A stretch of 24,512 bases of DNA from a virus, in UHGV virus genome UHGV-0105321, one strand, 5' to 3'. Position numbers and translations under genes: made by a program. This document shows, piece by piece, positions 6,621 through 8,183 of the stretch; the stretch's first letter is position 1, and each line of letters begins with the position of its first letter. Below the pieces are notes generated by a model. It was not told the origin of the DNA, did not search any database, and saw only the letters and a list, made by a program, of their open reading frames with translations.

Positions 6621-6653
6621 GAGGCAAAGAAAACCCGGCGCGGAAGCCGGGTT
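6621..6653 (-). terminator. Intrinsic terminator ending the cI operon (stem CCCGGC/GCCGGG, then UUUUCUUUG on the minus strand)
   Basis: GC-rich hairpin 6634..6651 immediately 3' of the stop at 6660, followed by a T-rich run on the minus strand. Confidence 0.65.
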
Positions 6654-6659
6654 AATGCG

Positions 6660-7280
6660 TTAATGCTGGGGAGTGATTTTTTTGTTGTCTGTTGGCTGGG
6701 TATTTTGTGGCGGCGCTTGCAAAGTGGAAGGCTGTTGCAAAGGTGCGTGGTCTGACTTTAAAGCTGATACCAGCCCGGGAATCGCAACTATTACAGCGAT
6801 AATGACACTAAAAATGGCTAATCGTATAGAAATACCCGACTGAACACCACTAATTGCGGTATTAACCCCTGTTATTTGTCCTTGAATTCCTTCGAATCTC
6901 CCATTAATTGCTTTTATATCGCCAGCAGCGCTATCCATCTTTCCATCGATCTTGGACGATAGAGAGCTTATGGCTGCATTAAGTGATGCAAATTGGACAT
7001 TAACGCTTTCACGAGATAGAGCCATGTCAGCCCTAATGGAGGAAGCAATAGACTCCATCTCTGCTTTATTAGCAGCTAAGCGAGCATCAAGTTCCTCTCT
7101 GCTGATCGTTCCCACTTCTTCCTCCGTTTGTGGCGGTTTTATGTAATTATTTTGCACCTTGGTGGGAGAATTATCAAATTCAGCCTCAAAATCAGAACCG
7201 CCAACAACCTTCAACCTCCGGCTTTCAGATATGTTGGTGTCTTGCTTTCCATGATTATTTAAATTACTGTCGTCACTCAT
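6660..7280 (-). CDS. Tail-anchored membrane protein, 206 aa: disordered N-terminus, heptad-like coiled-coil segment, single C-terminal transmembrane helix (IRLAIFSVIIAVIVAIPGLVSAL); third gene after cI
   Basis: Start ATG overlaps the stop of the upstream gene (ATGA at 7277..7280); hydrophobic 23-residue stretch near the C-terminus; loosely reminiscent of XhlA-type proteins (weak impression). Confidence 0.7.
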   Translation of the reverse strand: MSDDSNLNNHGKQDTNISESRRLKVVGGSDFEAEFDNSPTKVQNNYIKPPQTEEEVGTISREELDARLAANKAEMESIASSIRADMALSRESVNVQFASLNAAISSLSSKIDGKMDSAAGDIKAINGRFEGIQGQITGVNTAISGVQSGISIRLAIFSVIIAVIVAIPGLVSALKSDHAPLQQPSTLQAPPQNTQPTDNKKITPQH

Positions 7281-7711
7281 AATAGCTCTACGGTGAAAAA
7301 TGATTCATTTTTATGAAGTTCATTTTTAGGGTCTTCATTATCTTGCAATATCCCTATAACACTATACAGCCCTTTAGCTGGGACCCTAATTTCTTTCAAT
7401 GTTACTATTACCTGTCCGCCAACCCCTGTTTCAAAATGGCTATCTTTCGTATCGATGAAAAGTGAAACTGATTCCGAAGAGCCGTCAGGGAATTGAATTT
7501 CCTCACCTTTTTTTATAATTAGGTGCGCGGGGATTACCATAATACCCAAATTATATCTTGAATTTGGTTTCAACCCGATCATACCAACCCTGAAATCAAT
7601 TGATAGCCGCGCAGGAAATTCATTGCATGTAAAATTAAGCGTCGGTTGGTTGGGTTCTTCGCTGCTATCAAATGGGGTTATAAAAGATATTCTTTCTAAA
7701 TTAAGTGCCAT
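7277..7711 (-). CDS. Hypothetical protein, about 144 aa from ATG 7709..7711 (ORF extends to 7765); second gene after cI
   Basis: AGGAGAA ribosome-binding site 5 nt upstream of the ATG at 7711; stop overlaps the downstream gene start; AT-rich coding sequence. Confidence 0.6.
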   Translation of the reverse strand: MALNLERISFITPFDSSEEPNQPTLNFTCNEFPARLSIDFRVGMIGLKPNSRYNLGIMVIPAHLIIKKGEEIQFPDGSSESVSLFIDTKDSHFETGVGGQVIVTLKEIRVPAKGLYSVIGILQDNEDPKNELHKNESFFTVELL

Positions 7712-7781
7712 AAATTCTCCTGCATCGCTGTATGCTCTACGAGCATCTCTGCGACCATCCATCATCCAAACGTCTCTTCAC

Positions 7782-8123
7782 TCATCCGAAGAAGCAGCAA
7801 TCCGGGTCAGCACGCACAAGCTCAAGCGCATCAGTCAGCGAAAGTTCAGTACTGTACTGATGCCATTTCATATCCTTCCGCATCCAATAGATTTTCCATC
7901 TATCCAGAGAACGTATGTACTTGATTCTTGCTGATGGCAGGATGTTTGTTTCACCTGGGTTGCCCTGCCACACGGGGCGCTGTTCGCCGATATCTATCGT
8001 TTGGTCATTGATGCTATAAACAATATCCAGTTCATTGCGGATATGTTCAGGCGGCCTTATGCTTTCAATGAATTGGTGAACTTCTTTTTTGACCGCTTGA
8101 TATTCAAGGTCAGTGAACGCCAT
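7782..8123 (-). CDS. Hypothetical protein, 113 aa; first gene downstream of cI
   Basis: Strong ribosome-binding site GAGGAGGA 4 nt upstream of ATG 8121..8123; same strand as cI; 60-nt gap after the cI stop. Confidence 0.65.
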   Translation of the reverse strand: MAFTDLEYQAVKKEVHQFIESIRPPEHIRNELDIVYSINDQTIDIGEQRPVWQGNPGETNILPSARIKYIRSLDRWKIYWMRKDMKWHQYSTELSLTDALELVRADPDCCFFG

Positions 8124-8183
8124 CTATCCTCCTCACCCAAACGTTTCTTCTGGCCACTGGTTACCAGCTATGTGACGATGAAG

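Follow-up and report, generated by a model that had tools for sequence, protein, structure and literature searches.

The maintenance operon of prophage repressors is described as a hotspot for accessory and defense genes in passages of three reports, all of which cite Degnan 2007 (PMC8585504; PMC7067206; bioRxiv 10.1101/2024.02.24.581848). RexAB, Stk, BstA, and HigBAC occupy this slot, and all four are exclusion or abortive-infection systems (PMC3564112; PMC8585504; PMC7067206; bioRxiv 10.1101/2024.02.24.581848). For instance, Stk of phage 933W is cotranscribed with cI and aborts infection by HK97, according to a passage in PMC3564112 that cites Tyler 2004 and Friedman 2011. Directly behind cI, the Salmonella prophage BTP1 encodes BstA and a lambdoid prophage encodes HigBAC, both of them validated abortive-infection systems (PMC8585504; bioRxiv 10.1101/2024.02.24.581848). 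Phage 434 Hex, from the same operon position, lowers spontaneous induction and blocks RecA-mediated cleavage (PMC3564112). Here, we describe this slot in UHGV virus genome UHGV-0105321, a stretch of 24,512 nucleotides that we refer to as the window. Three open reading frames (ORFs) named P1, P2, and P3 lie there behind a cI repressor. An original prediction had treated the three as one candidate exclusion or abortive-infection module, on the premise that prophages carry defense cargo at this position, and the reports cited above bear that premise out. We propose, with a probability of roughly 45%, that P2 and P3 would constitute a lysogen-expressed two-component anti-phage system in which P2 gives specificity and P3 acts at the inner membrane, a reading based on the position and architecture of the pair.

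The comparison with phage lambda RexAB is instructive. Like rexA and rexB, P2 and P3 lie in the slot between the cI 3′ end and the terminator tIMM, in what would likewise be a PRM operon, and both loci comprise two genes, of which the first codes for a soluble protein and the second for a membrane protein. The original prediction had placed the genes in the rexAB position, and phages HK542 and HK244 agree with it, since the P2-P3 pair takes the place of rexA-rexB behind their lambda-type cI. Unlike the positions, the sequences are unrelated, since neither Pfam nor PADLOC gave a RexA or RexB match for any of the three proteins at E ≤ 1. In the membrane, RexB is polytopic, whereas P3 has one C-terminal transmembrane helix and a long coiled coil. 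RexB has also been reported to be an ion channel (PMC8585504).

Phage 933W provides a second comparison. Its immunity region is 97 to 99% identical to that of the window and shares with it a flanking DUF3024 gene, a boundary relic, and the terminator tM. Nevertheless, where the window has the P2-P3 cassette (6652..7742; 1,091 bp), 933W has a 153-amino-acid RuvC-like ORF, the stk kinase gene, and a 54-amino-acid ORF. The two cassettes are thus alternative cargo of the same slot; their proteins are entirely different, and the P2-P3 cassette is approximately 600 bp shorter. The stk cassette is absent from the window, and Pfam gave no kinase domain (Pkinase) match in P1, P2, or P3. Neither SieB (PF14163) nor BstA domains were matched by the three proteins in Pfam or PADLOC. 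Moreover, neither BstA, which is one DNA-binding protein, nor HigBAC, which consists of a toxin, an antitoxin, and a chaperone, is homologous to the three genes. The earlier statement that the three proteins resemble neither RexA, RexB, nor SieB therefore stands, while the broader one, that no family could be named, fails for P1, a DUF3024 protein.

P2 and P3 are an obligate pair

In the window, P2 matches phrog_5893 (3.3e-50) and P3 matches phrog_5820 (1e-76), both over their full lengths, and the two genes are adjacent, with P2 first. This arrangement is kept in E. coli, Klebsiella-type, and other loci, and we regard the two genes as an obligate pair. The possibility that the ORFs are not real genes was ruled out by conservation across genera and by purifying selection, as evidenced by pN values of 0.11 to 0.25 against saturated pS values of 0.74 to 0.80 for both genes.

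Two hypothetical ORFs of HK542 and HK244 share 99.5% DNA identity with the cassette. In the record for these phages, which annotates PRM, OR, and OL sites of lambda, the pair stands between a lambda-type cI (237 amino acids) and Timm; it has the same gene order, ATGA overlap, and terminator as in the window but follows lambda cI directly, without a DUF3024 gene. Other repressors of the LexA family also precede the pair in E. coli genomes, and the strains that carry it include both clinical and animal isolates.

A survey of the P3 family yielded 48 loci, which are redundant for E. coli and represent 13 distinct P3 subtypes; among the hosts are Escherichia, Klebsiella, Enterobacter, Citrobacter, Salmonella, Yersinia, and Pectobacterium. 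(A scan of genome contigs found only two loci, and a search for related loci with P0090 yielded none.) One small gene on the same strand lies directly upstream of P3 at all 48 loci, and a helix-turn-helix (HTH) or cI-type repressor lies no more than two genes upstream at 44 of them. These repressors comprise at least 15 subtypes (<90% identity) and include a long S24 type and a short type of 125 to 172 amino acids. The partner genes belong to at least six families with no BLAST link between them, namely, the P2 type (143 to 144 amino acids), families of 98 to 101, 96 to 97, and 92 amino acids, one of 112 amino acids with a CxxC...CxxC pattern, and a 149-amino-acid Salmonella type. Profile alignment with hhalign, for which the alignments were shallow, found no link between the P2-type, 98- to 101-amino-acid, and 96- to 97-amino-acid families. 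The family with the cysteine pattern (112 to 135 amino acids; 2982..3320 in loci L041..L044) has no Pfam family (best E, 0.27), and the pattern suggests a zinc ribbon.

The N terminus of P3 covaries with the family of its partner. It measures approximately 59 amino acids, with RLKVVGGSDFEAEFDN, when the partner is of the P2 type, and 77 to 80 or approximately 100 to 115 amino acids with two other families. In a metagenomic phage (L061), cI is followed by a zinc finger ORF, a P2 homologue (approximately 40% identity), and, by an ATGA overlap, a gene for a 165-amino-acid protein that matches P3 over its N-terminal half only (hhalign 99%, 3e-18). The remainder of that protein is a CCDC90/DUF1640-like coiled coil with a terminal transmembrane helix.

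Xenorhabdus, one Yersinia context, and three IMG/VR contigs carry the pair at a distance from repressors, either at the end of a prophage or in a late or tail region. Because it is found at such sites, the pair is an autonomous two-gene moron. In Xenorhabdus anantnagensis (L005 5355..6435) and at L048 2985..3995, a partner-P3 pair follows a tape-measure-like gene or stands among late-region genes, and the Xenorhabdus partner is only distantly related to the rest of the P2 family (E = 5e-4 against the P2 profile).

Architecture of P3 and P2

The original prediction described the terminal gene product as a coiled-coil protein with one C-terminal transmembrane helix, and our analysis agrees. Hydropathy reveals exactly one hydrophobic segment in P3, at residues 154 to 174 (Kyte-Doolittle 2.7), and the family alignment of residues 58 to 153 has a hydrophobic periodicity of 3.5 residues, which none of 1,000 shuffles reached. 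Insertions and deletions in the family occur as seven-residue blocks. P3 consists of a variable N terminus of approximately 59 amino acids, heptad repeats, the transmembrane helix, and a tail of approximately 32 amino acids rich in proline and glutamine. Across the family, the variable N terminus is followed by a conserved SREEL..NKAE segment and then by glycine-rich heptads; the best-conserved part is a G-I-Q-S-G-I-S-x-R/K-L stretch that runs into the transmembrane helix, and the tail carries a PIIIQVP motif, which is degenerate in the window copy. Because P3 has no signal peptide and its N-terminal ~150 amino acids are hydrophilic, it is likely tail anchored, with its N terminus in the cytoplasm.

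Profile searches, which the original prediction had proposed as a check, assigned P1 to DUF3024/PDC-S43 and returned only PHROG profiles and weak coiled-coil-type matches for P2 and P3. Beyond phrog_5820, P3 has only weak, composition-driven coiled-coil matches (Baculo_PEP_C, SlaB, MakE, and SmhB). NCBIfam yielded no match for P1 or P2 and only weak coiled-coil-type matches for P3, as did PADLOC when searched with all 23 P3 homologues. With the CCDC90/MCUR1-like proteins (DUF1640), P3 shares a coiled coil on the cytoplasmic or matrix side and a C-terminal transmembrane anchor, a likeness of architecture only. The L061 relative scores 29 bits against DUF1640 (1.2e-6) and P3 itself scores 12.6 bits, both below the cutoff of 33.5 bits, and for the known members, which are scaffold proteins of mitochondria, no link to phages is known. 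A role for P3 as a holin or lysis protein was ruled out by its location in the immunity region rather than in a lysis cassette, its cytoplasmic domain of approximately 150 amino acids, and the lack of a holin family match in Pfam or PHROG.

For P2, phrog_5893 is the sole family match, as none was found in Pfam, NCBIfam, or PADLOC. The family is tiny, with 23 representatives at E ≤ 0.001 among 1.84 billion proteins, most of them 136 to 153 amino acids long. A structural model (predicted local distance difference test [pLDDT], 70.7; predicted template modeling score [pTM], 0.65) depicts a seven-stranded beta-sandwich, whose neighbors are generic Ig/FN3/CBM-like domains and which, in BFVD, matches only uncharacterized phage proteins. 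Since neither a signal peptide nor a hydrophobic segment was found, P2 is presumably cytoplasmic. Profiles of P1, P2, and P3 searched against PDB sequences gave nothing significant (best matches, rotavirus VP4 at 0.48, TRPM7 at 0.018, and SmhB at 0.014), and a literature search by the protein accessions found no mention of them.

P1 and the division of the region into two cassettes

P1 matches the Pfam family DUF3024 (PF11225) with 108.7 bits over residues 4 to 113 (cutoff, 24.9), the PADLOC model PDC-S43 (PDLC05018) over residues 1 to 113 (7.2e-42), and phrog_3467. An AlphaFold2 model (pLDDT, 88.8) predicts a helix, a five-stranded antiparallel sheet, and a second helix, and hydropathy found no hydrophobic segment. 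PDC-S43 is a computational defense candidate only, and so an anti-phage role for P1 is putative. Our literature search found no functional study of DUF3024 and only a passing mention of PDC-S43.

The original prediction's grouping of all three genes into one module did not hold up, as DUF3024 comes and goes independently of the pair. It adjoins the P2-P3 cassette in 18 of the 49 E. coli genomes with a near-complete copy and is missing from the other 31, and loci with a lambda-type cI exist both with and without it. Outside Escherichia, no surveyed P3-family locus has a DUF3024 gene beside it. Conversely, DUF3024 is present in all 933W-type Shiga toxin phages among the matches listed, and the cargo behind it can be Stk (in 933W and, at a different prophage position, in Erwinia), a ParA-like ATPase (in Salmonella), or nothing (in Rahnella). 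In Erwinia aphidicola (L058 4001..6130), genes for DUF3024, a 153-amino-acid ORF, a protein kinase, and a 47-amino-acid ORF stand in the same order as in 933W. Because this quartet adjoins tail genes after dinI, not behind a repressor, DUF3024 and the Stk cassette are able to travel together outside the immunity region. In Salmonella enterica (L059/L060 3209..5554), a P22-like immunity region contains cI (S24), DUF3024, a ParA/CbiA-like ATPase of 357 to 368 amino acids, and then N.

Further evidence comes from two short relics of a cI 3′ end (Table 1). Both lie outside any gene, are direct copies of each other, and are common to 933W too. The first matches the cI 3′ end of HK542 (window 8130..8159, corresponding to L056 2549..2578) and reads QWPEETFG, which we take to be the C terminus of lambda cI. 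Because one copy follows the cI stop codon and the other follows the P1 stop codon, a relic stands in front of each cassette. The homology shared with HK542 and with two other E. coli prophages (L003 and L004) reaches exactly window position 7780, and homology to 933W extends down to 7743.

Since DUF3024 is independent of the pair, precedes other cargo, and has its own boundary copy, the region is, as read from these alignments, two independent exchangeable cassettes (P1, and P2 plus P3) rather than one three-gene module. Rather than a third subunit, P1 is most likely an accessory or defense candidate of its own, consisting of a single gene. The relics and the conserved tIMM hairpin look like recombination boundaries at which cargo is exchanged between immunity types, and the conservation of these boundaries would explain that exchange.

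The second relic also bears on the start of P2. RefSeq (WP_012601625) begins a 162-amino-acid P2 at an ATG at 7765, which we ruled out, as this ATG lies inside the stop context of the relic (GGATGA). Moreover, P2 homologues in other genera are 143 to 144 amino acids long, and AGGAG lies 7 nucleotides upstream of the ATG at 7711. For these reasons, the 144-amino-acid P2 is correct, and the longer version (extra window 7712..7765) is probably a propagated annotation artifact.

Neighborhood and operon layout

Two blocks that flank the P2-P3 cassette align with 933W. Window 7743..9550 matches DUF3024-cI-cro-cII without gaps at 97% identity over 1,808 bp (L001 4950..6757; offset, +2793), and window 5777..6651 matches N-nutL-tM at 99.4% identity. 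By alignment, the neighborhood of the three ORFs is the immunity region of phage 933W, in an E. coli lambdoid prophage, and because both blocks align, the 933W annotation can be transferred to the window (Table 1).

Table 1. Features of the repressor operon in the window
Feature	Position	Strand	Basis or remark
Operators oR3, oR2, oR1	8884..8954		Transferred from 933W annotation
Putative PRM (pM) maintenance promoter	8899..8926	-	Transferred from 933W annotation; would drive cI and downstream cargo
cI repressor, 933W immunity type, 235 aa, HTH_3 + Peptidase_S24	8184..8891	-	Pfam; ~97% DNA identity to 933W cI region
Boundary relic 1, CAGTGGCCAGAAGAAACGTTTGGGTGA	8133..8159	-	Reads QWPEETFG*; after real cI stop; TGA overlaps P1 ribosome-binding site
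P1, DUF3024 protein, 113 aa	7782..8123	-	Independent single-gene cassette; PADLOC candidate PDC-S43
Boundary relic 2, GAAGAGACGTTTGGATGA	7762..7779	-	Reads EETFG*; after P1 stop, between P1 and P2; holds spurious ATG at 7765
P2, 144 aa, predicted cytoplasmic beta-sandwich protein	7277..7711	-	First gene of pair; proposed adaptor/sensor
P3, 206 aa, probable tail-anchored coiled-coil protein	6660..7280	-	Proposed membrane effector; phrog_5820, family alignment, hydropathy, periodicity, ATGA coupling
Intrinsic terminator, operon end	6622..6653	-	Left boundary of exchangeable slot; fold; annotated in 933W and HK542

The physical features that had been claimed for the operon are all present, beginning with the three minus-strand ORFs themselves. 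The strong ribosome-binding site of P1 is GAGGAGGA at 8134..8127, 3 nucleotides before the ATG at 8123. The coupling of the last two genes is an ATGA at 7280..7277, in which the P2 stop codon overlaps the P3 start codon. The intrinsic terminator is a stem of 8 bp with six GC pairs at 6653..6632, followed by a T run; it folds with -17.3 kcal/mol (z = -3.6), and none of 200 shuffles folded equally well. This site is annotated as tM ("putative terminator for pM transcript") in 933W and as Timm in HK542 and is equivalent to lambda tIMM, and its sequence hardly differs among the window, HK542, and 933W and is conserved across the three immunity types. A search of the minus strand from the cI stop codon to 6653 found no other terminator-like site. 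With all genes on one strand, short gaps, no internal terminator, and an end at tM/tIMM, cI, P1, P2, and P3 would be cotranscribed from PRM. The region had also been called AT rich relative to cI (GC content, 0.452), which is true of P2 (0.375), weakly true of P3 (0.433), and not true of P1 (0.459).

Outside the immunity region, the prophage is, judging by its gene content, a mosaic and not a relative of 933W, because it combines a podovirus-like virion module that includes a P22-like portal protein and an SU10-type adaptor (window 20269..23478) with RecT/RecE-type recombination genes (82..3238). Homology to 933W ends sharply at a mosaic junction at 5777, the N stop codon, beyond which lies an ORF for a 188-amino-acid Zn-ribbon/HNH-like protein (phrog_2539; 5213..5779). 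At another junction (~9550..9616, after cII), an ORF of 358 amino acids without a Pfam match and a DnaC/IstB-like ATPase gene replace lambda-type O and P. The nin region holds a second opposite-strand moron island (12107..13839, minus strand) with genes for a Gp49/HigB-like toxin (13378..13839; PF05973, 1e-26), an HTH_3 antitoxin-like protein (13080..13388), and a DUF4145 protein (12107..12853) that weakly matches PD-T7-4 (0.003). This island may be another defense or toxin-antitoxin cargo.

A possible two-component anti-phage system

The anti-phage reading of P2-P3 is suggested by the combination of a constant membrane coiled coil, a swappable partner, and a covarying docking segment in P3, and by the exclusion and abortive-infection systems that occupy the same slot. 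Taken together, the three structural traits would have the look of a sensor- or adaptor-effector system under diversifying pressure. We envision that both cassettes would be made constitutively with cI in the lysogen. P2 would dock on the variable N-terminal segment of P3 and serve as the specificity or sensor subunit. Upon the detection of a superinfecting phage, the oligomeric coiled-coil and transmembrane part of P3 would act at the inner membrane, and P3 would either permeabilize or depolarize the membrane, leading to abortive infection, or block a membrane step of infection. P2-P3 would then be a functional analogue of RexA/RexB made of unrelated proteins. Physical interaction between P2 and P3, membrane action, and anti-phage function are all predicted steps of this proposal.

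Several observations weigh against this interpretation. No match for P2 or P3 was found among the PADLOC, Pfam, and NCBIfam models of validated defense proteins, and the coiled-coil-type scores that they do obtain are weak (LmuB, 0.016; PDC-S06, 0.0025; MakE, 0.006; and SmhB, 0.014). The fold of P2 is generic and its model only moderate, both the topology and the oligomeric state of P3 are assumed, and the conserved periplasmic motif PIIIQVP reads QPSTLQAP in the window P3. The cassette is also rare, with any match in only 51 of 5,426 complete E. coli genomes (near complete in 49). In two of the 51, IS1 interrupts it (NZ_CP063473 and NZ_CP031134; H84 and H85), and in two others it is partly deleted, with 73% coverage (NZ_CP027459 and NZ_CP027445; H93 and H94); these damaged copies may hint at a fitness cost. 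Finally, a gene in this slot need not be a defense gene, as 434 Hex also modulates induction (PMC3564112).

How do other explanations fare against the same evidence? The pair could provide superinfection exclusion without cell death, such that the tail or transmembrane helix of P3 hinders DNA entry or a membrane receptor and P2 only stabilizes or regulates P3. Operon position implies expression in the lysogen, P3 has a single transmembrane helix with an exposed tail in which the family conserves PIIIQVP, and the juxtamembrane and transmembrane part is the most conserved region of the family. However, most of the protein mass (approximately 150 amino acids of P3 plus P2) is cytoplasmic, and the hypervariable parts are the cytoplasmic partner and the P3 N terminus, which fits intracellular recognition better than periplasmic recognition; moreover, the tail motif is lost in the window P3 and in P0011, and the L061 relative lacks a tail altogether. 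We therefore consider such an entry block unlikely. The three-component system of the original prediction, in which DUF3024 would be a subunit alongside P2 and P3, is more improbable still. In its favor, the genes lie side by side on the same strand of a single operon, all three occur together in 18 E. coli genomes and 12 IMG/VR contigs, and the company that DUF3024 keeps with the 153-amino-acid/Stk cargo in Erwinia and 933W may mark it as a general helper gene for slot cargo. Against this stand its absence from 31 of the 49 cassette-bearing genomes, from HK542 and HK244, and from P3-family loci outside Escherichia, its variable presence at loci that share the same lambda-type cI, its occurrence alone or before the unrelated Stk and ParA-like cargo, and the relic copies that bracket it.

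Two further alternatives leave phage defense aside. P2-P3 might regulate the prophage itself, through induction, lysis timing, or repressor stability, as Hex in the same operon position of 434 lowers spontaneous induction (PMC3564112), or it might be an addiction pair, as its tight translational coupling resembles that of toxin-antitoxin genes. Nevertheless, the repressors that accompany the pair number at least 15 and include S24-cleavable as well as short noncleavable ones, and some copies of the pair lie far from any repressor, which argues against a repressor-specific role; the PsiB similarity is below any confident threshold, and none of the three window proteins matches a toxin or antitoxin family in Pfam, PHROG, PADLOC, or NCBIfam. 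We think there is only a small chance that this explanation is correct. Lysogenic conversion unrelated to phages, with the pair as a membrane-associated factor in fitness, stress, or virulence comparable to lambda bor or lom, would be consistent with the clinical and animal origins of the isolates, with the scaffold-like CCDC90/MCUR1 (DUF1640) architecture of P3, and with reports that prophage genes expressed in lysogeny include virulence and fitness factors (PMC7067206). It is improbable as well, as rapid turnover of partner families with a covarying docking segment is the signature of an arms race and not of a housekeeping fitness factor, and all cited characterized slot occupants except Hex are exclusion or abortive-infection systems (PMC3564112; PMC8585504).

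Implications for prophage defense

Parts of this picture were already known. The slot was an established hotspot, GenBank has listed the cassette as hypothetical proteins since HK542 and HK244 were submitted in 2007, and DUF3024 is a PADLOC candidate. This work adds the division into two cassettes with boundary relics, a corrected start for P2, the finding that partners are swapped within the P3 family, and the link to tail-anchored coiled coils of the CCDC90 type. The slot content of related prophages, whose comparison the original prediction had suggested, was informative in this regard, as 933W carries the Stk cassette and HK542 and HK244 carry the P2-P3 pair. The survey separates the DUF3024 gene from the pair, and the combination of a constant membrane protein with a covarying partner predicts which parts carry specificity and which carry effector function.

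A broader idea, which we hold only tentatively and consider somewhat doubtful, is that the P3 family might be an unrecognized class of modular systems with which prophages across Enterobacterales exclude phages or abort infection. Its members would pair a tail-anchored, probably oligomeric effector with an N-terminal docking segment that is swapped together with a cognate sensor from one of at least six unrelated families, and they would reside mainly in the repressor operon, where they would be nonhomologous but functional replacements for RexAB. If this is true, the same effector could be re-aimed at different phages.

The slot behind a prophage repressor is among the few places where the expression of cargo is almost guaranteed in every lysogen, and its characterized occupants, RexAB, Stk, BstA, and HigBAC, have each revealed a different mechanism of abortive infection. 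HK542 and HK244, which can be cultivated, have lambda immunity, and carry the cassette where lambda has rexAB, offer a cheap test system. If the P2-P3 pair is a defense system, it would represent a new family that acts at the membrane, one with which the poorly understood mechanism of Rex could naturally be compared.

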